64,000 nucleotides of DNA from Bugula neritina (taxonomy: Eukaryota; Animalia; Bryozoa): assembly GCA_964035545.1 (NCBI GenBank), contig OZ037769.1, positions 14,786,633-14,850,632 on the forward strand, in the 5' to 3' direction. This document shows, piece after piece, positions 11,953 to 54,100 of this stretch (the first letter of the stretch is position 1; every line of letters starts with the position of its first letter). The position numbers and the translations under genes were made by a program. A model generated the notes under the pieces. That model searched no databases. It was not told the DNA's origin and was given only the letters and a program-made list of their open reading frames with translations.

Positions 11953-13095
11953 CTACTTCATTCCGCAGAAAGCCGCCCAGCAGCTGTAGTTTGCCACTAC
12001 AACTGGGTGAATCAGTCTGTAAATATAGTCATGATCCGTCTGTGTGGAGCATCTCATCACCTCGACTGGCCAGAAAGAGTTTTTGCAGGTATCCCTACTC
12101 ACCTGACTGGCACTAAAGCTAACTTTTACACCCACCTGTGCCGGCATTTCTGCATCCGTCCACATCGGATATACAGTTCCACAGCTACGCATCTTTGGAC
12201 AAGTGTTGAGCATTCTGTTTCCTGCCGCTCCAGTGAATCTGAACCAGCGAGTGTCTTGGTGTAAGTCACAAGCGTATCCTTTTAGAGCGTGGGCTCCGCC
12301 TCCTTTGTAACCACTTCCATGGCGATCACTTCTTGATGGATCCGTGAAGTTGGTTGCTGTAAGACATTCGGCTGGCTGTGGTAATACTTCAGTTGGCTTG
12401 AAGACTACGACAGGCTTTGTGGTGACAGTTGGTTTGGTTGTAGCTGATGTGACTGTGTGCATTATGGTCGTTCTAGTAGTTATTTTAGATGTAGCTGCTG
12501 TCGTAGTTGGTAGAGTGGCTGCCGTTGATGTAATTTGCTTAGAGCTTGTAAATGTTGTATTAACTGTTATGGTTGGTGTTGCTGTAGTGACTGTTGTAAG
12601 AGTTATAGTGGTTCTGTTTGATATTGTAGTTGTCATGATTGTTTCAACGAATGTGGTAGTTTTTGTTGGTGTGGAAGTTGGGGTACTTGAATTTGGTGTA
12701 GTGGCTTCATTTGTGGTGGTTGTAGCTGGTGTGGTGGTTGTTGTTGGTGTAGTAACTGTTGGTTTAGACATTTTACTTGAAGCATTGCTTGTAGTAGGCA
12801 AATTAGTAGCAGTAATTGTAGAATTCTCTTCTCTACATCTGGTTAATTTATTCAACATTTCCTGATAAACTCTTTTCTCAGCTTTTAGTAACGACTTCTC
12901 GTCTCCAACGAGATTTCTCTGACTTCCCGGTTGATATTCGTAATCTGGACATTCTCTGGCCAGTGTCTGCTTCAGTACTGTAATTCTTAGCTGGTAATCT
13001 GCCAATTCTTGTCCTGTTGAATCAGAAAGTATTGTCGCCTTCACTTGTAGACTGATTGACAGGCCTAATGTGAATATAAGTAATACATTCTTCAT
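11953..13095 (-). CDS. Secreted mucin-like protein with C-terminal UMOD/GP2/OIT3-like D8C domain, 380 aa, intronless
   Basis: Signal peptide MKNVLLIFTLGLSISLQVKA; Thr-rich stalk; motif CD...WFRFTGAAGNRMLNTC...CGT..P.W...V.VMRC...YIYRL...C...FC; 8 Cys in the domain. Confidence 0.9.
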   Translation of the reverse strand: MKNVLLIFTLGLSISLQVKATILSDSTGQELADYQLRITVLKQTLARECPDYEYQPGSQRNLVGDEKSLLKAEKRVYQEMLNKLTRCREENSTITATNLPTTSNASSKMSKPTVTTPTTTTTPATTTTNEATTPNSSTPTSTPTKTTTFVETIMTTTISNRTTITLTTVTTATPTITVNTTFTSSKQITSTAATLPTTTAATSKITTRTTIMHTVTSATTKPTVTTKPVVVFKPTEVLPQPAECLTATNFTDPSRSDRHGSGYKGGGAHALKGYACDLHQDTRWFRFTGAAGNRMLNTCPKMRSCGTVYPMWTDAEMPAQVGVKVSFSASQVSRDTCKNSFWPVEVMRCSTQTDHDYIYRLIHPVVVANYSCWAAFCGMK

Positions 13096-13483
13096 GGTTC
13101 CTAATATTTATAATCATAAATTTTTTTTTCAATTTAAGAAGTAATAAACCTTGCTAAATGTATGTGCTAAATACTAATATCTCCTATTACTATTACCAAT
13201 AGCTCTTATGATATTTTAGTTTGTTTATACAGATGCTATCTCCCATAATGTGTTTCTCAGTTCCTTGTATAGCAGTAAATAAAAATGGGCCTAGTAATTT
13301 CAGAGCTATTAATTTTAAAACTTATGAATATATCTAATATATCTAATGTAATATATATATTTCATATATATCATGTAGGTTGCAATGCAATTTGCTCGAA
13401 TAACTTTGTTTTAAAACAAATGTCAAAAATATATAGATCATCAAAAATTGCATTTTCACAAAATTCCCTAGTACATCCACAAT

Positions 13484-27100: not shown

Positions 27101-30100
27101 GATAGTTTTTTCTGATAATTAATGAGTGTCGGGACTTGTTGGTAGGCCTTTGTCCTGACTGGCAAGACTGGGATCCTAACCAAGCTAAGAGGAATGCTAC
27201 TGAGGCTATGGATCTGGCAGAGAAGTACCTGGATGTGCCACAGGTTTGCCGTTTGTTGAGGTTGTATTCTGCAGCAGATGTAGTCTGTAGCAGACGTTTA
27301 TATAGCAGACATATGTGTAGCAGACGTATATATAGCAGACATATATATAGCAGACATATATATAGCAGACGTATATATAGCAGACGTATGTATAGCAGAC
27401 ATATATATATAGCAGACGTATATATAGCAGACATATATATATAGCAGACGTATATATAGCAGACATATATATAGCAGACGCATATATATCAGACGTATAT
27501 ATAGCAGACGTAGTCTGCAGCAGTTATAATATTTACTTTATGATTATACTAAGTGTAATTTATGTAATTGGTTGCCAATGTTTCTGCTGAGAGACTGTTA
27601 ATGTTGTTAACGGAATCTGATGTAGAAGTTTTCCAATAATCATCTTGTCATAGTGATATTCAAAACTTATTCTGTTAACCTTTTAACTTGACTCTCTTTA
27701 TGTCCATTGAGATGGGAGATTGTCACATGTGCATCGCTCTACCATATACTCTACCATACTCTACCGTACTCTAGCCTACTCTACCATACTCTACTCTACC
27801 CTACTCTACTCTACTCTACTCTACTCTACTCTACTCTACTCTACTCTACCCTACTCTACTCTACCCCACTGTACTCTACTCAAATCTACTCTACCATACT
27901 CTACCCTACTCTACCCTACTCTACAGTACTCTACCGTATACTCTACCCTACTCTACTCTACCATCCTCTACGATATACTCAGAGAAAGAAACTGAAGTTA
28001 TAAATTTTTCCAGTTGTTCAATGTGTTGTATCTTCCTCTGTTAGCTGATAAAACCAGAAGAGATGGTAAACCCGAAGGTGGACGAGCAGTCTATGATGAC
28101 GTACCTCTCACAGTTCCCCAATGCTAAACTCACTCCTCAAGCACCGAGCAAACCCAAGACAAACGCTGCCAGAGTCAGAGCTTATGGTCCTGGTCAGTAT
28201 TTCTTTTATTTTATCTTCTGAAGATGTGTTTTTTTAATTTTTTTGTTTCAGCTTTTGATATCTCTTTACTTGATGTAATACAGTATTGTGAGGGCAAAGG
28301 TTATAGACCTATTGACGGAGTAGCTATATTTAACCTGTAAAAATAATTTTGTCAAACAATTCAATATCTTCAACTGTAGCATTTTTGTAGGTGTTTTTCA
28401 TTAACCTTTTTTATTCTGAGGGCGTCACACCTAACATTTCATATTTAGTTTTTTATTATTAACATAAAATTGGAGATTTTTATTTCAATAGAGTTACATA
28501 GCTGGATTGTGTTTATGATGAGTTTCAAGTGAAATGATTATATAACATTTCTTGCTCAGGGCTTGAGCCGCAGGGTAACTGTATCGGTCGTCCTGCCAAC
28601 TTTAAGATTGAGACTTTCGCTGCCGGGAAGGGCGAGCCACTGGTTCTGGTGAAGAACCCTCGTGGTCAGCCCGAACGTGTAAGTGACGCCTGCAGACGTC
28701 AGCTAGCAGCGACTGTCGACAGCGGCTGTCGTTGTGTGTGTGTTTTGTAGAACTGTGCTGTTAACTGAGTCATGGGAATGCAGCTGTTGCATCATGTCTA
28801 CAAAGTATTCCGGAATGTCTCTGGTCTACTAATCTTTATGGTTGTTATACTAATAGATTAAGCATGTGTTATGTTTTCACAATATCCCCAACATTCATAC
28901 TGTATTAAGACATGGGTGGCTAAAGTAAAATCAGTTCCAGTTATTTCCTTTTTAACTTTTTTGCAGGGTCAAGCTGTATAGGTTGTTTATTTAAAGACAA
29001 ATAATTTTTTAAAAAAAGGAAAGAGTATCTATAAAAATTTACGTATATGTTTCTTGACACAGTGTCATGAGTACATTGTTTTAAATGTGGTTTAATTTTA
29101 TACAATTTTTCGGAAGACTTTGGGTTTGTGGCTACTTTACAAAATTCTTCTTTTGTATCTGTTAGCTTGTGAACCTTGTGTTACTCGTTGTGTTATACTC
29201 TCTCTGCATGACAATGTGTCTGTTTACTAGGATTGATGGCTAACGGTGTGATTGTGGATACGTTTGCCTATTTTTATATTGAAACCTTTGAGGCTGGCAT
29301 TGGGCCAATAGCTGTGGGAGTTTATAGCCCCAGTGGTCAACCCGAGCAGGTAATATTGTTACTATTCTGCTAGAAGCATGTTAACTAATATTTACACTAG
29401 ATCTACAGTAAATTGATGTTTAAGGTTTATGCTAGTATCTATAATTTTATGGCATGCAGTCCTTTACCTCTTTGCATGTGTTGAACTATCTTGTGAGATT
29501 CATGTTAACCGTGAAAGCTCGGATACACTTACTGAAAATGAAATGGAAATAATTGAAATATTACCAAAAAACTTCCAACTGACTGTAAAGCAGAAGCCTT
29601 GGAATCATTAGAGAAGGTTTATTTCTGTCAGAAAAAAGTGTTTTGGTTTTCCAAGTTTAAATACTGCAGTAAATCTTGTCACAAGTTTGATTGGGCAACT
29701 GCAATTCTAGTAAATATGAACATTTGCTAATGTTTTCTTCCGCATTAACCTACCAAGTATGTTCCAACACTTTAGGATTCAAATATTACATTATATGGAT
29801 TTTCATTTTGACAGGAGAATACAATTCTAAATATTCAAGCTTTCTGCTTTATTGGTGCTTTGTAAAAAAATAGTACCAATTTAAATGTTCACTCAATACT
29901 TTAGTAAACTTTAGGCGTTTTATTTATTCTTAGTTTGTACGTTTGCAATGTAACACTCATATGTAGCATTTGGACATAGTGCTGTATTTATACACATGTC
30001 TGTATGTTTTTCAGTGCGACGTGGTGTTTAATAATGACAGAAATCTAACCTACGCTTGTCAGTATGTACCTACCATGGAAGGCGAATATACAGTAAGTGT

Positions 30101-36100: not shown

Positions 36101-39100
36101 TCTCTGTGTGACGAGAGAGGACTGGACGTACCCGTAGAGGCTGCCGACAACGGGGAGGGTCTCTTTAGGTGAGTGTGTCGGCATCAACATGTTCAGCAGC
36201 AAACATATATTGTGCTTTGTTGTTACTTGGGGACAGCATTCGCATTTAATCTACTAGTTGCGTTTGTTTCACATTTTTAAACAGTGCTTATCATATCTCT
36301 GGTAGCAAATTAGATGAAAAAAGAAAATTAGAAGTATCGGGTGTTTCATATTTTACTGTAAGATTATTTGTGTGAATGACTTAAACTTGATGATGAATAC
36401 AAATTAGAATATGCAAAAGAATGATGATTTGACAATTACGTGCCCAGAGAAACAAAAACCAGGCTCAATCTAACTTATTGATATCATAACTCAGCGTGCT
36501 CTTTGAGTATTCATCATATTTTTGGAAATGTGTATCATGTTAGTTTAAATAATTGGATTGCGTTTAAATTTCAGGATTGAGTACGAGCCAAAGTCAGTAG
36601 GGATGTATACTGCCAATATACTCTTTGCTGACCAGGAGATACCAACCAGTCCTTACAAGATCAATGTGGAGCCCAACATTGATGTCAGTAAGATCAAGGT
36701 GGTGGGACTGGAACCACGTAAGTCTAAACTGTATTTGTGATCAGCTAGTATTAATGACGTTCCCTCCTACAGACTTGTGTAATGTTATTAGAAAAACATT
36801 TAGGGTTGTTTTTAAGGAAATTTGCTGTGGAATGAAATGCCTACCCCATTCTAAATCAAGCTTTTAGTTGGCAATAAAAGAATGAATATTGGATTCTGAA
36901 GCAATAGGCCCTTACTAATCTACCAATGCAATGATGTAATTTCCTGTCCCGATAACCAAACAGTGTTGAAGTGATGGAGTTAGCCCCCTCCCCAAGTATT
37001 GGTGACCCTAGCACCACTAGTGTGATTTACCACTTTAACTGCAGTTGCATTCTAAATACTATAAATTCTATATACTAGCCTATTGTGTGATGGTTTACTA
37101 CACATTTGATGCTGTGAAACATCACCACCTTTAGATTTAATTAGATTTAGTGAGTCATTTTGAATACAGAATGATACACTTCCTGTTTGCATTTCATTGG
37201 TCATGTGTACAGTGACATCATCATTGAGTCGTACTGACCTGTATTACAGGGAATCTTTCTCGCAGTCATCAAATATAATTTACTTCTGCTTTCTTTCATC
37301 TCTTGTCACAAGAAACTAGCATTTAGCATCTGGAATCTGGGTCATACTTGTTGTCCTGGTCATTCAGAGAGCTGACTAGTAATCAATGCTCAATTATCAT
37401 AGTTCCTCTTAACCACAACTCCTCAATTTATCAACTAGAAATCCCGATCGATGTCCCAACTGATTTTGTGATACAAGATGATGGGGCGGGAAAAGCTCCT
37501 GTCAGCGTGAGTGTGAGGTCACCCGCGGGTCGCACCGTGCTGCCAATGGTAGAGGAGCATCCTCAAGGTCATCATGTCACATTTATACCAAGAGAGCCCG
37601 GTCCTCATGATATCAGCATAGCGTACGGAGGGGTGAGCATCCCCTCTAGTCCGTACACCACCACTTGTGTTGAACCGGTCACAGAAGAACAGCCCATCCA
37701 GGCTCAAGAGAAAGCCAAGCCTGTTCAGGCCACTCAAATGCCTGTTCCTGACGCTGGCAAAGTCAAAGCATACGGCGATGGTTTGTACCGAGGCATAACC
37801 ACCAAACCAGCCGAGTTCACTATCGATACTCAAGAGGCGGGTCCGGGAGCACTCGGGCTCACCATTGAAGGTCCAATAGAAGCCAAGATGGAGGCCCGTG
37901 ACCTTGGAGACGGCACATGTCAGGTCACCTACTACCCAACTGAGGCTGGAGAATACACCATCAACATATTCTACTGCAATGAGCCGATACCCGGTGTGCC
38001 TTATGTGGCTAATATACAGTCGGGAGTTGTAATTGATGTTAGTGGGGTGACTGCCTACGGCCCGGGACTGCAGCCAAATGGTATGGAACTGTGGTCTGCT
38101 ATGCATGGTTTCCTGTCGGTTCTGTTTGATGCATGTTTGTTTGATGCTCTACATGTCCTGAATTGACTTGCATGCCGTTGCTTGTCTGTACACCAACTCT
38201 AATGGACGAAGACTATAGTTCAAAGGGGAAGCCATGTTGCAATATTTGTATTAAATAACCGAGTTTTAATCGGAATAGCATGCTTTCTAGTTTGACTCTA
38301 ACTAACTTTTAGCTGCCATATTAGTTCTTTTCTGTGAGTTTGTTTTAGAAGCAAGCCGGGAAACTATCTGTATGTCTATGTACTGTTTCTGTTGCCATGA
38401 TCAAGTACATCTGCTAATTCTCTTTTGCCATTTTGAAGTCATTCCCCATACATTTACACACTCTCAGCAAAGCTCAAAGTCAAGCTATTTATAGCTCATA
38501 TTACTTTATCAGTGTGTTTAAAAAGGTTTAGTCTGTTCTTGTTCAATTTTCGTTCCGAATGCAGCATGTCTGTACATGTTCTCATTTATATTTACTGATC
38601 TACTTTCTAGTCCAAGTCTTATAGATCTATATTTAAAATTCACTTTTCATTTTCTAGTTGTGACTAAAATCAAATTGGGGATTCACCTCAGTTCTTTTTA
38701 TAAAACTTTTGTTCAATTGAATTTTTCTCAATTTAAATTAATGCACACAAATACAATAAAACTATCATTATGATAAAAGTGGCATATAATTGTGCTATAA
38801 AGGAGTTATTACCATTTTGCTGGAAAACCAGTTTAAATTATTACACTAAACATTATTTTGTACAAAATTTCTACTCTATACTGTTTCAGGAGTCTTCATG
38901 GACTCAACAACTGATTTCACCGTTGATGCTAGATCGGTGACACCCAGCTCTGCCGGGAAAGTAAGGGCCATAATCACCAACCCTTCTGGTACTAAGAATG
39001 ACACTCTGGTTACACCCAACGGGGACGGTACATACCACGTCTCCTACGCTCCTTCTGAGAAAGGTTGGTTTTACTGCTTTTTCTGGTCATATTGATGCTA

Positions 39101-42100: not shown

Positions 42101-45100
42101 TCAGGCCGAACATCACAGACAACCGAGACGCAACTGTCAGCGTCTCCTACACACCTGCGGAATGCGGCGTCTACCAGCCTAAGGTCAGATATGGAGGAAA
42201 GTCTGTTCCCGGCTCTCCCTTCCAGGTGCACACCAGGCCCTCTGGCAATGCTGCTGCCTGTCACGTCAACGGTGAGTCACTTCTGTCACATGACTCATCA
42301 GAGAGATGACACGCAAGTATTTTGCTTACAAAGATCAAATGGAGGCTTTGAAGTTCTAGTTTTTCAAATTTTTGAGAATTCAAATACTTTAGTCGGTTTC
42401 AATGACTATTGTGGGCGTATTAAATGCACTAGTTGAGAACTATTTTTCACATCTGTGTGATTTCAGACGCGAAGAGGAAAGTCATAGTAGGTGAGGAGTG
42501 TGTAATCAACGTAGACAAGTCTCGAGCTGGTCCAGGTAACGTCACGGCACGCATCAAGTCTCCATCTGGTCAACCTGCGGACATAGACATCGAAGATAAC
42601 AATGATGGTACTGTGTCGGTGTACTACACGCCACGTCATCCAGGTGTGTGTTCTTTCCTTCCTGTAGAAGAGGTGGGACAATTCCATATGTTGAGCTAAT
42701 TGGATTTCATATTTATGCGTTTAATGGCTTAGTAGTTTTCTCAAAAACGTATAATGTTGGAATTTTTCATACGGTGCGTGTTTTAACCATTGGGATGGAT
42801 TTAGTTTAAAATCACTCACTTTTTGATAAATCATCTCTTCCCTCTCATATTCACTCCACTATTTGTTAAAATTTTATTCCTCGACTTTTTTGTCAACAGG
42901 AATATACCAAGTCAACCTGAAGTTTGGTGGAGTGGAAATACCAGGAGGCCAGTTTGATGTGGAGGTTAGTATGCTGACCTTAAGTTCAAGGTCATTCATG
43001 TTGCCCTTTCAACTTAACTGCCTGTCATACTGTTCTAGAATTTTCTGTTTTAGGCGATGATATGTACAGCCAACAGGATGATAAATTATAACCATTCAAT
43101 ATTTCTCTCTTTTAGGTTTGGGCTACTCTTCACTTAATGTATACTTATGTTCTTTTATTGTTAGGCTTATTTACCATTAAATGACAGAAAGCACCTTAGA
43201 GAAATACAGCATATAGTATCTCATCAGAGCTCAAACTGTTTCTTAGAGATCTTTTATAGGTCCATCCACACACCATGTAGCTGATAGTTTTGTTAGATCC
43301 CAGTAGAGCCGCTTCAGACTTAAGATTTCTTTTAACAAACTTGCATGACTGCTTAAAGTTCTGTGAAATATAAAAACTTCTTTAGCTAAGCATTGTAGAT
43401 CTGTGCACCAGTTCAAACATTTTCTGCAGCCGGTTTCAATAGAATCTGTCTATTTTATTCTATTCAATTGGGAATTGTTTGTTGTATCAGGCTCTTCCAG
43501 AGTCCGCTATGCAGCCCCAGGTTCAGGCAACAACCGACTTTGAGAATGCCCCACACCAACAACACCAGCCCAATATAACGAGCACCACCACCTCAGACCA
43601 GTACACGCATCCTCAAGTTCATGCCTCAACTGATGTCTCAAACGCATCGCCTAATGTTAATCAGCCGTATTTTACTGGTTCTGTTGAAACTGACCAGAGC
43701 AAGAGGCCCCAGACATCATTGTCGCCTGAGTCATTGCTAACATCACCCCAGCAAAACCAGCCTTCGAATTACCAATCTCCACAGTATCAGAGGCAACAAA
43801 GTCATCCTCAGCCGAACCAGAGCCAGCCTTACCAGAATCAGCCCAACCAGAACCAACCCTACCAGAACCAGCCCAATCAGAACCAGCCCTACCAGAATCA
43901 GCCCTACTCAAACCAACCTACCGAAAACCAACCTAACCAGAAGCAGCCCTACCAGAAGCAGCCCAACCAGAACCAGCTCTATCAAAATCAGCCCAATCAG
44001 AACCAGCCCTACCAGAATCAGCCCAATCAGGGCCAGCCTTTCGCAAATCAGCCCAATCAGAACCAGCCCTACCAGAACCAGCCCAACCAGAACCAGCCCT
44101 ATCAAAATCAGCCCAATCAGAGCCAGCCTTACGCAAATCAGCCCAATCAGAACCAACCCTACCAGGATCAGCCCAATCAGGGCCAGCCTTTCGCAAATCA
44201 GCCCAATCAGAACCAGCCCTACCAGAACCAGCCCAACCAGAACCAGCCCAACCAGAACCAGCCCAACCAGAACCAGCCCTATCAAAATCAGCCGAATCAG
44301 AGCCAGCCTTACGCAAATCAGCCCAACTCAAACCAACCTAACCAAAACCAACTTAACCAGAACCAGTTCTATGAGAATCAGTCTCATTCAAACCAGCCTG
44401 GCCAGAACAAGCCTCACCATGGCCAGCCTCAACAGAACCAGCCTTATCAACAAGTGCCCCAACAAAGCCTGTTTCAGCCACATCAGCCTCAACAAAACCA
44501 GCCCCAGCCCAATGCCATCACAACTACAACTACTGAACAGACCCAGCAGTTTTATCAACGGAAGGTTTCTCCTAGCACTGAGGATAATAATTATTCTAAC
44601 TGGCCGCAACAAAATCAACCCCAACAATACCCAGCCGTGCAAAATCTACCCCGGCAAGTCCAGCCTCAGCATCAGGCATACCAGCCCCAGCGCAACCTGC
44701 CCCAATCTAATGTTATCACAACTGAGAGGACTCAACAGTTTCAACAGAAGACTGCTCCTGATTCTACCAATCAGAACTATCCTACAACTCGTGGTGGCCA
44801 GTCTCTGCCTTCTCAGACGAATCCAGAGGTATAGCAGAGCTGGGTGTCTCTGCATGATCTTTCTGCTGTTTCAGCTGGAGTCACTGGCCGTTTGTCTATT
44901 TGATGACTTTTGTCCTATTGCACAGTATGGCTACTTTGGGATTTCTCCTCTATTGCACAGATGGCTACTTTGGGATTTCTCTTCTATTGCACAGTATGGC
45001 TACTTGGGAATTTCCCTTCTATTGCTCAGTAATGATGCTCTACCGGCTTTTTCTTCTTTGAGTGATACAAAGTCTGATAAACATTTCTTCAACTGGTTAA

Positions 45101-48100
45101 ATGATGATAATAAATATGGTCTCTCTTGTCTATTGTTGTGGTCTCTACCTTTGTGCTGTTTACTAACATTTGACTATGGCTAGTCATATAAAGTCTATGC
45201 ATTTTAGTTTACAGTCATTGCGCTGACTCTGAGTGATAAACATCTCTTTTGCATGCCAACACTTCAGATAAATGCTAGTTTCTAAGTTTTGTTTTATCTT
45301 GGGGATTAGCATGTTCAGTCTTTTGATTAATTTTGTTACATTGGGTGAGTTATTTTTCGGAAAAGTCTGCCTTTGAATCAATACTCACTTGTCGGACTCA
45401 TAGTAATTTGACTTTTTCTTTATCATCTTCCTGTAATTGTTTATAAGGTTTTGCTGTTTTGTACAGTTAATAACAAAATGGTTTATTTATTGTCAGTCAA
45501 CTGCCGTGTGACTGCAATTCTTAACAGCTCATTTGATTAATTCAGGCTACACCTGAAGGTGAAGGTCAGGAATTCTCTCAGACAACGATTACGTCAGAAT
45601 ATCACTCTCAAAGTAGTCTGCCCACTATTACCACCGAGGTACAGCGAATTTGCTGCTGCTGCTGCTGTCAAATCCTCTTCCCTTCTTATAACTATTAGGT
45701 GCATGCTCTTTCACGGGATGAAATCTCCCCGACTTCCTCTTTTCTCATTAGCTATTCATTTTCATATTGAAAAGGATGATTTGCCTACTCTTAATGATCA
45801 TTTAGTTATCTCTTCTTTTGAACGCTGGAACTGTCTTTTAGCTTTGCTTGACTCAATTAACTTTCTGTTGCTAGCTACAAAAAGTTTCTTGCTCTGACTT
45901 GTGTTTATTTGCCTATGCTCTGCATCAGACATGGTTGATCTTTTCTTGCATCAAGTGATGTCAAATGATCATCTCATAATCATTTCTTGACATTTTCTAC
46001 AAATGTTTTACTTCAATGAAATTGGTGAATTATGCAATTTAAAACTGCTCGCAGGTCGACTCTCAGCGCCGAACAATCGTCACGGAGACTCACCGAACGT
46101 ACACTATCAACAGCAATGTGCCGCAGACGCCGCAAAACGTAATTATGTGTTACCTCATAGCTACTCTTCTGCACACGTCCTGTCGCTATGCTGTCTACAT
46201 GTTGCTATTGCTTTGTCACAATGTTGTGTATCAGTCCGCTATTGCTTTGTCACAATACTGTGTATCAGTCCGCTATTGCTTTGTCACAATACTGTGTATC
46301 AGTCCGCTATTGCTTTGTCACAACACTGTGTATCAGTCCGTTATTGCTTTGTCACAGTCACAATATTCTTCCTCATCTGATATTGCTGGACCACAGAGCT
46401 TTATGTTGGCGATTATTGCATTTTATGTCTTCCAATGATAACACCAATCCTTGCAATGGTTATGGTTAGTTTTAAGATATGCAAGTTTATGTTTGTTTTC
46501 TGTTCTATTGACGGAGGCTTCAGTACAGGCCTGGTGCTCTAACCTAGCATGAGTCCTCTATAAATTTAATGAGCTTCATTTGCTTCAAGACTTGTAATAT
46601 ATTATCGAGTAACAGCAAATAGCCCAACTAACTTCAAGGTTATCTCAAACCAGAGACTTCCTAATGGCGTAGAATAACTATTTGCTTATAATTATTTTTC
46701 ATTTATTTTGCTTTAAAATGATGTACCATCTAATATAATTGCCGATTGGCTCATGCAATTGCACAGTATCCAACCACGCTGCTTGTTGGCTTAGTCAAGA
46801 TAGTTTACTTTACTTTAGTTTTAATGCCCATTACAATTTTTTTAGTAATACTGGATAATATATGTCAGTTTATCTGTTCTCTGTTTACCAAGCATGCATA
46901 TGGTGTCATGTATATAGTCTGATGTATGTTGTCTGATGTATGTTGTCTGATGTATGTCGTCTGATGTATGTTGTCTGATGTATATTGTCTTATGCTGCTC
47001 ACAATGTATCTGTAAACTGTATTCAAATGTGTTCTTTTACAGCTATGCATGACCTACAATATCAGGGTATGTGTGCTTTTTATTCACTCATTCTTACTTT
47101 CCAGGTCTGCCAGGCTTTTTAACGCTCATTTGCTCTTGGAGGCTGAAGGGAATATTATTAGTATCGGCATTGATTTACTTTATGGTGTGATACAGTCTTA
47201 TTACACGTGTTCATCTTTAGACAAAACATTAAATTGTAGTACAGTTTACGTTATTAGTATATTTGATACAATTTAAGTTGGCACAGTAATGCTTTTAAGG
47301 CTTCTGCTTTAATTAAATGCCATGATTCCTGTTAAGAAAAACCAATGGCCAGACTTTAAAACTTGGGAACTCTTGCATTACAAAAAGTAAATAATTTTTT
47401 CTCTATTTTGTTTTTTTTTTCAATTAAAATGCTTCATGCCTTGCTAATTGCTAGATATATACGTGTTATATTCTTTCTATTGCCATCTATATTCTTCTAG
47501 GATAGTTGAAGGTGCATTTCTATAATGCGATCAGTCCCAACTTGTGTTTATGTTGATTCGGGGCTGGACACATTATAGAGACGTACATCATTTCAGTCTC
47601 ACTCAATCATGAGTGACTGTACCAGCCTGTGATCTACAGTGGCCTTCAACATCCTGCTGATCCATGTCACTAACTTCAGGGAGCACAACTCCTTCACCCA
47701 TAGCCCAAGTTCTATAACCTCTTCTGTTGTTTCTTTGTAGGCTGACTACATATCGGTTGACAGAGTAGATAGTAGTTATCAGGCTATGAAACAGTCTGCT
47801 CCCACCAACATGTTTCACCCAGTTGACTTTGTAATCCCTACTGGACCTGTCTTCAACTACACATCAGGTTGGCTGGTCATCAGTTGCATTCTAGATTATA
47901 CTAAATCTGATTCTAGATTAGACTGAATATGGTGATAGATTACACAGAATATGATAATAGATTATACTGAATTTCATCATAGATTACACAAATTTTTTGA
48001 TAGTTTTGATGATGGAATAGATGTGTATATATAGAAGAAAAAAACCTCACGCGACTTTATAGTCACTATCCCTGCGAAAAACCCCTGATGGAACAGGTTT

Positions 48101-51100
48101 TTGTTAAATCGGGCTAAGGACTTATTCATACGTGGCACAGGAGTAATTATGACTGGATGCTCTTCTTAACATCACCAATGGCCTTAGTGGAGTTTAAACC
48201 CATGAGTTTGTGCTTACCAGGCAAATGATCTAACCTCTACACCACGGCTGCTCCCTGCATATATAGAGAAAAAGACTATGATTACATAATGTGGATATTA
48301 TTTTTCTATTGATCTTGCTTAATGTGTTTAGACTCTCAGTCTATCTTAGTTTCCAATATTTGTAGCTAAAGTTGTTACGCCCTCTGGACACACACACCTA
48401 CCTGAAATAGTTGACAACGGAGATGGAAGTGTTACCATAAAGTACCAGCCTATAGAAACAGGCTTACACAATCTGCATGTGGCATACAACAACAAACCTA
48501 TCGAAGGTGTGTAGTAATAAGTTGATGCTGTGTGCTACATTTTTTTCTCCGGCACAAGTCATCGCTATGGTTACCAAACTGTTCTGTTTCCTGTGAGTGA
48601 AGCTGACGTAGTGGTTTCTTGACCTTGAACTTTCTGTAGTACATCCTGCAGCCAATCAGAACTGTTGTAGAATATTCTGTGGCCAATCAGCAATGCTGTA
48701 GTATATTCTGTGGCCAATCAGCAATGGATAATCAACTCTGATAAAAGAAAAGTTACTATTCTCTTATTCCCAACCTCAAAGAGCGAAGGCTAAAGACTAG
48801 TTTTAATTTGTCAACTTACTTCCGTAACTTACTTACTTTTCCATTACGCTACGGAAAACTCTTGGTGATTCTCTTTCTTTTCTCTTCTTATCCTTGATGT
48901 CAAAAATTTATCTCTTTGTCTAATGATTTATCAGATTGATATGTAATTCTCGGCAGGTGCGCAGCTTAACACAAACATTATCTGAAGAAGTATTTGTTGT
49001 GTTGCAGGTACTGCCCTGAAATACCATGTGGTTGGCACATATCACTCCCGATTGTGGTTCAAAGGTATTGTAAAACCAGAAATACAAGCTGCCCATTTCA
49101 CATCCACAACTCTCTCAGCTAGACCCAGTTACGCTCAGTTCCCATTCTAACTAATCCGGGGGCTTTTTAAAATTCCAGGCAATAGCTTTATTTCTGGCTT
49201 TTACAGTAGCTTATTTCGTTCCCACAGACCATATGATTTGGAATTTTCCTTTCTTTATTTGCCCTCACCTCCCCTCTTTCTCTGGTCATATGCTTTTCTA
49301 TATTCGCTGATTTTGCTGAAACTGAAAAGTTAGTTAGTCTGTGGTCCTATGTTTATAGGAAGTCCCTACCAGTTCTACGTAGATGCAGTTGACAGCGGCA
49401 TTGTGGCGGCGTATGGCCCAGGGCTAAGTTATGGAGTGGCCGGGGAACCATGCTCTTTCACCATAGACACTAAGAATGCTGGAGCTGGTATGTAATACTT
49501 CATCAAATAATTTCTGGTGGTTATAATAATTTTATCAACAAGGAGTTGTCTTTCCTTTAGTTTCAATAACTTGGTGTAATCTTTTTCGATTTTCTCAAAG
49601 GCAATGCAACTCCAATGTTTTAAATCAATCATTTCTACCTATTGAATGTTTTGTATTGCTACAACACTGTTAGCTAATATACGTCTTCTATGTAAAGGAA
49701 AGACAACTTTGTATTGTAAAGAATTTTCACCGTTTATTTACCAAAACATATGGCAAAAAGTAGACACAATAATACAAACCTGCCCTGTAATAGGTGGACT
49801 CAGTCTGGCTGTTGAAGGCCCGTCTAAGACTGAAATCAGTTGTCATGACAACCATGACGGCACATGCACTGTGACCTTCGTGCCGAGGGTCGCTGGCGAG
49901 TATCGAGCCTCGGTCAAGGTCAATGGGCAGCATATCCCGGGCTCTCCATTCTTGGTTAAAGTGCAGCCCAGACCAGGTTAGCTGCATGCTGCCACTGCGT
50001 GTCACGCTGCCACTGCGTGTCACGCTGCCACTGCGTGTCACGCTGCCGGGTGTCTGCTTGTTGTGCTGTCGGGTCTCTGCGTGTTTGGCTCCTTTTCCGG
50101 CTTTTAGCTTCTGTCAAAAATAGAGGTGACAATTCCTTACTCTAACACCAAAGAGTTAGGCGCTTTGTTCCTTTTACAGAGCTCAGTACTAATGAAATAT
50201 CCCTTCCAAGCCCAATTGCTTTGTTCATAGAAAAAATATACTGATTCTACTCCATTTTTTGTAAATTACTAAATTTAAAGCCTCATTCATGAAATCATGA
50301 TTTCGGGTCATTTAGTTTAAACTATAGAGACAGCAATATAGGAGGCTGGTTTGCAGTTCTCGCGCCAAGTGATATATAGCCTGCCTTCTGTTGCTAAACA
50401 AAGGTAGTGCCACATCTCTGAAGAAACTGAGGAATGACATGTAATTACAAGTCTATAATCTCATTCCTGTTGGTGTAAGGAATGAGTCCGTGTGTTGTGA
50501 AGTTTTAGCATGCTGCATGGTTTGATTGGTTGCAGGTGCATTATCCCTGGCTATTGAAGGCCCTAGCAGAGTTGATATTACCTGCGATGACAATAAGCGT
50601 GGACTATGCAGAGTTTGCTATATTACTCAAGCCGAGGGAGAATATCACGTCATCATAAAATTTGATGGTCAGAATATTATCGGCAGTCCATTTAAGGCTC
50701 TGATATACGGTGGGTATCGGGCTAAGGTTTTGGTGATTTTATTTATGCTTTGTGGTTCTGTAGCATGCCGTGTGTATTTAACAAGAAACAATGCTGTAAT
50801 TTTACTAAATTTACGAATATTATTGTGAAATGTGTCGTTTACTATTTACAGCACTATAAAAGAGACATTAAACAGCATATGCTTGTTATTTTATTGTCAG
50901 TTATTTTGGAGATTTACAAATGTGGAGACTTATTTATTTTAATATTTTTCTCTATAAATTCTAATCAATTGTTTTTGAGCCTCCAACTGAAATGTTGCTT
51001 TGATGATGTTTAAATTATTTCGGGATATTTCACACCATATATTCTTTAATATGTATCTGAAAGCATTTCGAAAATTATAGTCGGTGAGTTTTGTATAATG

Positions 51101-54100
51101 GATGTGATTTAGGGGAGATCCAAGAGCGGTCCCAGTTCTCGATGGGTACAGCTAGTGAGTTCTCGCTAACCGTGAAAGAGTACGACATCAACACTCTTAC
51201 AGCAGATATCACGACTCCTTCTGGTAAATCTGAATCCTGTATTCTCAAGAAGCTGCCCAATGGTCACTTAGGTGAGTCATGAGCCATCAGATAGTGTGAG
51301 TCATGAGTCATCATAAAGTGCTAGTCATACACTAGAATGAGTCATCATATAGTGTTAGTCATACACTAGAATGAGTCATCATATAGTGTGAGTCATACGC
51401 TATAATGAGTCATCATATAGTGTTGGTCATACACTAGAGTGAGTCATCATATAGTATGAGTCATACACTAGAGTGAGTCATCATATAGTATGAGTCATAC
51501 ACTAGAGTGAGTCATCATATAGTGTTAGTCATACACTAGAGTGAGTCATTATATAGTATAAGTCATACACTAGAGTGAGTGAGTCCTGCTATGAAACATT
51601 TGTAAGTAGTAGTAGGAGTTATTTGAAGTTACAGACAGTCGATAGTTTCAGTCATTAAAATTAGTTATTCCTCTACATTATAGAACTGGCTGGAAGTAAA
51701 TAAAACTCTCACGCAAACTAATAAATAGGATTACTACAGATTCTGCTAGACATTTTATGTTCATACTGTACCCCAATAGAACAGCAATTTATCATCTATT
51801 CTAACTGTGTCGGCTGTCTAAATTATGAGTAGAAATTATGGTTTCATAATAAATTTTGCTTGCTTTAGCCAAATAGTTGAAATTGATAAACTATCCCTGT
51901 CCTGCTCACTCACTGGTCACTCTCCGAAACCTGTTTTATACAGCACAAGTTACTTAAATTATGCATTTATACTCCACTCAACTCTTAAAGTTGTCTACTC
52001 TTTACACAGGGATTTCGTTCACACCTCACGAGACTGGAGTTCATCTGGTCAACGTATACAAATACAGGCAGCATATTCCCGGCTCACCTTTCAAGATAGA
52101 TGTTTCGAGGAACGAGGTTGGCGATGCCAGTAAAGTCCGCGTGTACGGAGAAGGTCTCTACAGAGGTTATCTACATCAGATTACTGAGTTTGTAGTCGAC
52201 ACTCGTGATGCAGGTAATACTTTGGCTACCGAGTGTTACCCCTTTTAGAGAATAAACTTGTTAAAACAATTGATTTTTAGTACATTTTAGTCAAAGTTTT
52301 CTAAAAAGACTTATTGCTTCCATGAGTGTTTTTGTGTGGAGAAACAGAAATTCAAAGTACTTTTTGGAAGCTGATTTAAATTATTTATTCTGCACTCTTT
52401 TTCATTTGTGTGCCATGCAATTGCTTGCTTGACTTGCATATTGGACTTCTGCAATGCTTCTTTATGTTTTGCCCTTGTTGAATTTTGCTGTTAACTGAAT
52501 TATATTTTTACAAAAAATGAATGATGACTGCTTTATAGCTGTTTCACTCACTTTCCTTTATACTATTTTTTAAGTTTTGTATGAAATGGTTTAGAGTAGT
52601 GAAAATATCATTGAAAACTGGTTATTTTAATACAAAGTTTGTTTTAAAGTTCAATTCTCGAACAATTAGAAATTCTCAAAAATCTCATCTGAGCTAAGTT
52701 TTTCCTTTTCAAACACATATTATTTATTTTTGTTTTACCAAAGAATATTTTAGCCTATCTTTATGTATAAAGCTTTGTCTATGTTCCCCTTGTCAGAGAT
52801 GTGTTCTAATCTTTGTGGTTCTCATAGCATGGCATGGTGTGAATTAATTTTACTTTAATTCATTGCAGTTCCAAACAGGTTTGTATGAATTGCTGGTAAG
52901 TCACACAATTTATGTTTTCATTTTAATAAAGAGTTCTTGCTTTTGCAATAAAGCATTTCCAAAGGTTTTTCCACAAAAAAAAACTGTCATTCAGTTAGTG
53001 CGAAAAATTCAACATAGAAGAGCTTTTTCATAAATTATAATCTTAAAAGTACAACCACCACGAAAGCAAATCTTTTGTAAAAGGTAAAGCTCTTTTGATA
53101 ACTCTCAGAGTTATCTTCTCTCAAACCATATAACTGGGAAAGATAATTACTTTGAACAATTTTTTTTTTAAAAGTTCTGAAAAAATAATGATACCCATGC
53201 CATATAAATTAAAAATCGCACACCTTTCAAACTGCAACTGAGCATTTCTATCTAGATATATGCATACAGAATTGATCTAAAATATCGTGACCACGCAGTA
53301 CTTTAATGGACTTTGAAATCTATAACATTGCGTCAGTAACTTTGCCTTCACAGAGCTGGTCAATAATATATAAAAGCTTGCAAATAAAACAAGTACTTTT
53401 TAGTCAACCCAAAAGGTGTTTATTTTACTACCTTCTATCTACTGGAGATTTCTATGTATTCTTAATTTATTATTTACCACTCATAGCTCGTATAACCTAT
53501 TCATAGTTCAACCTATTTATAGTAAGGTTAGCAGACCAATTATAGTAAATTCATCTCAAGTAAACTTCAATGAAATATTTTAACAGATGAAAAAAGCTCC
53601 TAGCCATCTTCTGCCATCTACTGCGTTCTTTTATCTTCCTACTTCATGCTAGAACTGAGTTTAATCGTCATCTTTTTGTGCAATTCAAAAATATTTTATT
53701 GCAGAAGGTCAAAAATATTTTAAATAGTACATCATTATTTAATTTCATATGCTATTGAGCTTTGATATCGTGAAATTGGTATTTCAGATGGACATTTTAT
53801 AATGGTTGGTAGAATTGGGTCATATCAAGTGTTGTAGTGATAGGTAGTAAAAAGTTCTTGGTGGCAGCAGATTGGTTATTAAAGAGAAGACAAGTCTTGT
53901 AAGGTTTAAATGTTTAACACTCACTCATTATATAACTCTAAAACTCATATTTAAGCTGTTACTGTTCCTCTACACATTACTTCTACCTTATCTTAGCTAA
54001 CTCAAGAGGTCTGCCCTGTAACGAGTAGACAATTACTTGTACAGGGTAGACAACTACAAGTATGCAGACTACAAAGTTTCCACTTTACCATTTAAGGTGT

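Follow-up and report, generated by a model that had tools for sequence, protein, structure and literature searches.

The window analysed here, a stretch of 64,000 nucleotides, carries on its plus strand an animal filamin gene whose calponin-homology exons begin at ~24200 and whose Ig repeats extend beyond 62600. In a tree built from the flanking exons this filamin sits on a long branch of its own among the filamins of invertebrates and vertebrates. An earlier note on this DNA had described two paralogous exons for strands C-G of one repeat behind a single exon for strands A-B, and this arrangement was verified to exact coordinates (Table 1): both exons, hereafter A and B, match positions 41-93 of the Pfam Filamin family. 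As expected of tandem-duplicated exons, A and B are adjacent, homologous, in the same phase and of similar length (183 and 174 nt); they agree at 27 of 58 residues and at 93 aligned bases, with identical codons at 10 of the 26 identical-residue sites. The shared exon, A, B and the exon at 51113 all have AG/GT ends, phase 1 and lengths divisible by three. A profile scan revealed no C-G copy beyond these two, and a second shared exon is likewise absent between A and B.

Table 1. Features of the exon pair and of its flanks in the window
Feature	Position	Strand	Description
Shared exon	49359..49487	+	129 nt; end of Ig16 equivalent plus strands A-B of Ig17 equivalent; Pfam Filamin 2-34
Exon A	49794..49976	+	183 nt, between AG and GTTAGC; strands C-G with a proline-containing linker longer by 3 residues; evolves slowly (89-96% identity among 4 orthologous lineages) and has a near-canonical C-D face
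Exon A donor	49977..49982	+	GTTAGC, weak, pyrimidine at +3
TGCATG after exon A	49983..49988	+	intron +7; predicted RBFOX enhancer of A
GCATG + TGCATG tandem before exon B	50508..50519	+	-28 to -17; predicted RBFOX silencer of B
Exon B	50536..50709	+	174 nt, between AG and GTGGGT; alternative strands C-G; fast-evolving, yet frame open and length held at 174 nt
Next constitutive exon	51113..51271	+	start of Ig18-equivalent repeat

The repeat was assigned to class A as an Ig17 equivalent: it follows Ig16, precedes Ig18 and contains the C-D groove residues. It is the 15th repeat of this protein by count of C-G matches, and the name Ig17 rests on homology. The best single-stretch PDB matches were 5DCP/2K7P for A, and 2D7O followed by 5DCP/2K7P for B. 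We take 5DCP and 2D7O to be Ig17-containing constructs. 2K7P is described as FLNA 16-17 in PMC3143143. This filamin seemingly lacks about four repeats of one bivalve filamin, P0003 (its residues ~919-1343 are unmatched in order; window 36713-37441), which makes the Ig17 equivalent approximately the 15th repeat, as in the numbering of fly Cheerio. Upstream of the filamin coding exons, a single long frame on the minus strand (11956-13107) combines a signal-like start with a mucin-like stalk rich in Thr and matches uromodulin D8C weakly (E 0.002, below Pfam's cut-off).

Splice joints of exons A and B

Joints were read from the contigs of four runs (X1, X2, X4 and X9, from four studies) among 13 runs found; the RNA nature of the four is a guess, none of the 13 being recorded as RNA, and the runs carry no tissue labels. 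The contigs of X2, X4 and X9 contained exons only, and X1 also had intron-containing contigs. The shared exon was joined to the upstream exon (48506) in all four runs, and also to both A and B. For the junctions 49487-49794/50536 and 49976/50709-51113, which the earlier note had proposed, both joints of A (to the shared exon and to 51113) were present in 4/4 runs. The joint from the shared exon to B was found at the exact GT..AG in 3/4 runs, X1 having two imperfect joints at depth 6-8, and the joint from B to 51113 in 2/4 (X2 and X9, with a one-letter allele difference), together with a 9-letter loose end in X4. Both joints of B were carried by single contigs in X2 and X9, and both joints of A by one in X1. 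All these joints coincide with predicted splice sites and recur between studies.

No joint from A to B was found in any of the four runs, nor any joint skipping both exons, in contigs, which drop rare forms and cannot prove absence, and with the short side of the joints of this pair measuring 20-30 letters, under the 31-letter bridging threshold. These joints support the mutual exclusivity claimed by the earlier note: both exons are joined to the flanks, and routine co-inclusion of A and B in this filamin is unlikely. A and B are a real, conserved exon pair, and a probably mutually exclusive one as read from contig joints. Contig depths for A versus B were 680 versus 6-8 in X1, 25-41 versus 50 in X2, 21-27 versus 11 in X4 and 39-40 versus 34 in X9; contig depth being a poor measure of expression, a variation of the A:B ratio between samples is only hinted at. 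The tissue switch suggested in the earlier note is conjectural, the runs differing solely in this contig depth.

Other alternative exons occur in the gene. A first pair of 119-nt exons in repeat 1, A1 (28560-28678) and B1 (29231-29349), has 18 of 39 residues alike, and its co-inclusion would shift the frame. In X2 each path of this pair occupies a separate contig; X9 shows the joints from A1 and from B1 to the next exon, its joint into B1 being imperfect and of low depth; in X1 the joint from A1 to the next exon (depth 1057) is the only one, and X4 barely covers the region. A joint from A1 to B1 was not found in the contigs of the runs. At both pairs X1 is A-dominant and X2 and X9 are mixed, which hints weakly that the pairs are co-regulated. 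Copies of GCATG flank B1, ~25 nt ahead of it and 27 nt past it, but the 150 nt following A1 contain none. An open, frame-preserving candidate exon of 1338 nt in the hinge ahead of repeat 16 (window 43491-44828) encodes Gln/Asn/Pro/Tyr-rich pentapeptide repeats of prion-like composition and has TGCATG at 44851, just past its donor. Further frame-preserving candidate hinge cassettes with AG/GT ends are located at 45546-45638 (93 nt), 46055-46138 (84 nt) and 47043-47066 (24 nt); TGCATG follows the 93-nt cassette at 45700, and another copy lies inside the 24-nt microexon.

Origin and divergence of the duplicated exons

A shared-exon alignment, used to scan metagenomes, yielded 144 confirmed loci, of which 80 were kept. 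In the flanking-exon tree, 11 loci clustered with the window (support 99/100) in two sister groups, gene 1 (99/96), comprising the window and L001-L003 and L005-L008, and gene 2 (98/93), comprising L004, L009/L014 and L010. Four datasets each contained one gene-1 and one gene-2 locus, so the two genes are probably paralogues. Two C-G exons were present in 9/11 in-clade loci, the contigs of the remaining two (L005 and L006) ending too early. The duplication was found in none of the 46 outgroup loci that span the interval (26 with introns; 69 non-clade loci in all). Likewise, a single C-G segment each was seen in the isoforms listed for mollusc filamins (48 cluster members besides the queries) and in the 29 of 150 representative proteins with a recognisable start of repeat 18. 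A search for homologues of exon B among longer proteins gave one match. The sole protein near-identical to B, P0221, is a read-through genomic frame and not a transcript.

Seven lineages were compared, namely the window, L001, L003 and L008 for gene 1 and L004, L009 and L010 for gene 2, leaving out near-copies (L002, L006, L007 and L014) and the short L005; exon ends in the relatives were taken from DNA only. In L010 the shared exon seems to begin at a different acceptor (~6006), later by a few codons, which may reflect an intron that has shifted or been added. The best tree placed all A exons together (97/81) and all B exons together (95/77), a grouping that points to one exon duplication preceding the gene duplication; a separate duplication in each paralogue stays compatible with the data (p-AU 0.15 and 0.087). 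Across the loci compared, the A/B duplication is old, lineage-restricted and kept in two paralogues.

The rates at which the two exons changed were unexpected in that the conserved exon is A in gene 1 and B in gene 2. Among gene-1 lineages identity was as high as given in Table 1 for A and 43-64% for B, whereas in gene 2 the order is reversed, with 48-62% for A and 91-95% for B. In the C-D region, the fast exons contain 3-7 residues absent from 30 outgroups, and the slow exons 0-1. Synonymous sites are saturated (pS 0.63-0.99 across comparisons), for which reason no dN/dS is estimated. Fast exons are nonetheless still under purifying selection, as judged from a pN of 0.23-0.37 far below a saturated pS of 0.71-0.92, from open frames and from the fixed length of B, 174 nt in 7/7 lineages. 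The A exon of gene 1 is 183 nt long with the same proline-containing tail in 4/4 lineages, and those of gene 2 vary in length and tail (174, 201 and 183 nt, inferred from DNA only). Gene 2 is a lineage-specific second filamin gene bearing the same exon pair; its downstream exon is conserved and strongly acidic (net charge -7), its upstream exon being the degenerate member.

GCATG at the inner ends of the A-B intron

According to PMC11874969, proteins of the RBFOX type bind GCAUG and usually enhance an exon from downstream and repress it from upstream, repression being described there as less clear-cut. The positions reported in the earlier note for TGCATG, 7 nt into the intron after A and ending 17 nt before B, were confirmed, and a further GCATG that it had overlooked was found at 50508-50512. 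The resulting tandem covers the zone where the branch point of B is expected; scans for consensus branch points gave no consistent site. In support of the activate-A/repress-B geometry proposed in that note, the motif recurs at both places in all seven lineages: GCATG lies within 60 nt past the donor of A (+8 to +31) and within 60 nt ahead of the acceptor of B (-14 to -56), there in two copies in 6/7. In L010, with an A-B intron of 62 nt, the two sites count toward both windows. Five other intron ends, used as controls, had GCATG in 3/35 cases (Fisher p 4e-6 for each site, a value that overstates independence because the seven lineages are related), and the background outside the A-B intron was 3-12% per window. 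GCATG was the sole 5-mer to reach 7/7; the strict hexamer TGCATG is present at 2/7 A donors and 5/7 B acceptors. Since TGCATG is common in the window (29 copies on the plus strand of the 64 kb), its significance rests on conservation between species. Over the filamin gene (26600-64000) TGCATG is skewed towards the sense strand, with 20 copies there and 8 on the antisense strand, ~11 being expected.

Inheritance of an unchanged intron does not explain this conservation. None of the 21 pairs of A-B introns aligned above its best shuffle, and with introns unalignable and synonymous sites saturated, simple inheritance does not account for the kept GCATG. A pyrimidine at +3 was found in 7/7 donors of A, versus 1/7 donors of the shared exon and 1/7 donors of B. 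The conservation of GCATG at both inner intron ends, against 3/35 in the controls, makes control of the A/B choice by an RBFOX protein likely, as predicted from the motifs. In the window (50132-50155/50460-50483) and in L008 (1297-1323/1519-1545), imperfect long-range stems can be drawn by which the central part of the A-B intron would be looped out; overall folding is not significant, and X1 has insertions in one arm.

Consequences for the repeat and interpretation

Filamin ligands are described as adding a strand beside strand C and packing into the C-D groove (bioRxiv 2025.05.02.651884, PMC10164935). Compared with the class A repeats Ig17, 19 and 21 of FLNA as presented in PMC3143143, PMC5882645 and PMC10164935, exon A retains the C-D groove motif and exon B retains it for the most part. 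Seven ligand-contact residues of FLNa21 given in PMC5882645 were mapped via the structure-match alignment and read S-L-A-T-I-C-D in A and S-L-A-V-I-C-D in B, so that one of the seven differs (Thr to Val at the A2281 equivalent). Identity between A and B is 7/9 in strand C, 4/9 in strand D, 5/12 in the D-E turn plus strand E and 11/27 in F-G, the differences falling mostly at outward D-strand positions, in the D-E turn and in strands E-G. The earlier note had pointed to the D strand and the D-E turn of B; the D strand of B is not conserved among orthologues, and the extra Cys of B is real, but private to this species.

These data bear on what the exchange of exons would achieve. The earlier note had envisaged a switch of binding specificity, in which A and B would each bind a different, conserved beta-strand partner via the C-D groove. 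Strands C and D do sit in the exchanged exon, Val occupies the A2281 equivalent in 3/4 gene-1 B exons versus 1/30 outgroups, and 4/4 gene-1 B exons share a derived D-E turn (Gly-Leu-Cys-Arg/Lys for Gly-Thr-Cys-Ser/Thr), at whose derived column 30/30 outgroups have Thr. However, the other six contacts in the window are the same, the F2285 equivalent is Cys, Tyr, Cys and Thr across the four B exons, and the drift of B among orthologues is unlike the usual trace of a fixed second ligand. We consider this version of the switch overstated and unlikely; the data would fit a canonical form and a tuned or weakened one better than a ligand X and a ligand Y. The majority of A/B differences being outside strand C, the exchange might instead tune mechanics, with strands E-G and the linker changing the packing against repeat 16 or the tether to the masking strand of repeat 18, and not the groove. 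The common tail of A in gene 1 and the constant length of B would agree with this, as would the pairing of repeats 16-17 and 18-19 described in PMC3622079 and the masking of repeat 19 by the repeat-18 equivalent described in bioRxiv 2025.05.02.651884. Yet the A tails of gene 2 vary; we regard a purely mechanical role as distinctly unlikely. That one exon is a tolerated, functionally neutral spare, spliced at some level, is highly improbable: B evolves several times faster than A and in X1 is joined at no more than trace depth (~6-8 versus 680), but reading frame, exon length, splice sites and adjacent motifs have persisted although synonymous divergence is saturated, pN is far below pS, and the depth of B is near that of A in X2 and X9.

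Exclusivity itself could be imposed by RNA pairing, by steric closeness of the splice sites or by another factor reading the same sequence, rather than by RBFOX. As GCAUG contains the palindrome CAUG, the two motif sites could pair, and the motif regions do pair in the minimum-energy fold of the A-B intron of the window; long stems are present in the two longest A-B introns. Folding z-scores were weak (-1.46 and -1.76), however, and cognate duplexes between the A side and the B side were no stabler than cross-species pairs (63% of permutations as low), on which grounds pairing of the two motif regions was rejected. Conserved, covarying complementary elements of the kind that define docking/selector arrays were not found in the A-B introns. 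Steric closeness would suit the 62-nt intron of L010, but the intron is 559 nt long here and the relatives use adjacent introns of 72-99 nt. Taken together, these routes to exclusivity are quite improbable.

We think it fairly probable that A and B are tandem-duplicated C-G copies of filamin repeat 17, spliced either-or after one A-B exon common to both, that a protein of the RBFOX family likely does the switching, and that the outcome is likely a conserved and a tuned form rather than two fixed ligand specificities. Under this proposal, an active RBFOX protein bound just beyond the weak donor of A would promote A and, bound at the expected branch region of B, would block B; when RBFOX is low, the donor of A would fail and B would be the default. 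As neither exon disturbs the frame, the choice cannot be enforced by nonsense-mediated decay. The slow exon would retain the ancestral class A groove, and the fast exon would retain the fold while changing the D-E turn, strands E-G, the edge of the groove and the linker that leads to repeat 18, with a changed affinity or domain packing as the predicted outcome.

Exon pairs of this kind have precedents. In human FGFR2, an Ig-like ligand-binding domain has a shared first half and alternative second halves from the duplicated exons IIIb and IIIc; RBFOX favours the upstream exon, each form is conserved, and the two are proven to differ in ligand. The filamin pair resembles FGFR2 in the swap itself, but here one form drifts and the groove barely changes. 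In C. elegans, the exclusive pairs egl-15 5A/5B and unc-32 7a/7b are likewise resolved by RBFOX proteins that select one exon by tissue: as described in PMC3585155, ASD-1/FOX-1 act through an upstream UGCAUG to repress egl-15 5B, and unc-32 7a is selected. Unlike in those genes, both ends of the intron between A and B carry sites here, a filamin repeat is the target, and the regulator and any co-factor are putative. The pair also shares with the tandem duplicated exon substitutions presented in PMC9741552 and PMC5740500 that the exons are adjacent, homologous, of similar length and the same phase, used singly and old, and differs in that the conserved member stands in opposite positions in two paralogues. 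The names FLNA, FLNB, FLNC and filamin are absent from those supplements of the two papers that were covered, whose tables may use other identifiers, and filamin gene names are absent from the main text of bioRxiv 2023.04.29.538821. Splicing of FLNB exon 30, in the hinge, is described as regulated by QKI and RBFOX1 (PMC6103745); it removes the hinge, whereas the pair described here exchanges half a repeat. No paper describing this filamin pair was found in a search of openly accessible papers and of tables that give gene names. The class of mechanism is known; within the literature searched, its use on a ligand repeat of filamin and the mirror-image fate of the exons in two paralogues were not found described.

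Filamin repeats 16-21 are a well-studied force sensor, and among the animals compared the ligand repeats have a single form per gene. An either-or repeat 17 provides natural paired domains for identifying residues that tune ligand binding and force response; if the proposed reading is right, cells could choose between a slowly and a rapidly evolving version of a force-sensing scaffold. With GCATG kept at both of its ends, the short A-B intron (62-559 nt) suits the study of exclusivity imposed by one factor without frame-shift decay, and the opposite fates of the exons in two paralogues offer a clear-cut case for testing how function is divided after duplication of exons and of genes. Tentatively, and with more doubt than confidence, we suggest that one RBFOX switch predating the filamin gene duplication may now flip which paralogue bears the canonical repeat 17: with RBFOX on, gene 1 would use its conserved exon and gene 2 its degenerate one, with RBFOX off the reverse, and in gene 1 this program would further exchange half of repeat 1 and hinge cassettes. 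If true, this would be subfunctionalisation of a reciprocal kind, in which the duplicated exons of two duplicated mechanosensor genes share out the roles.
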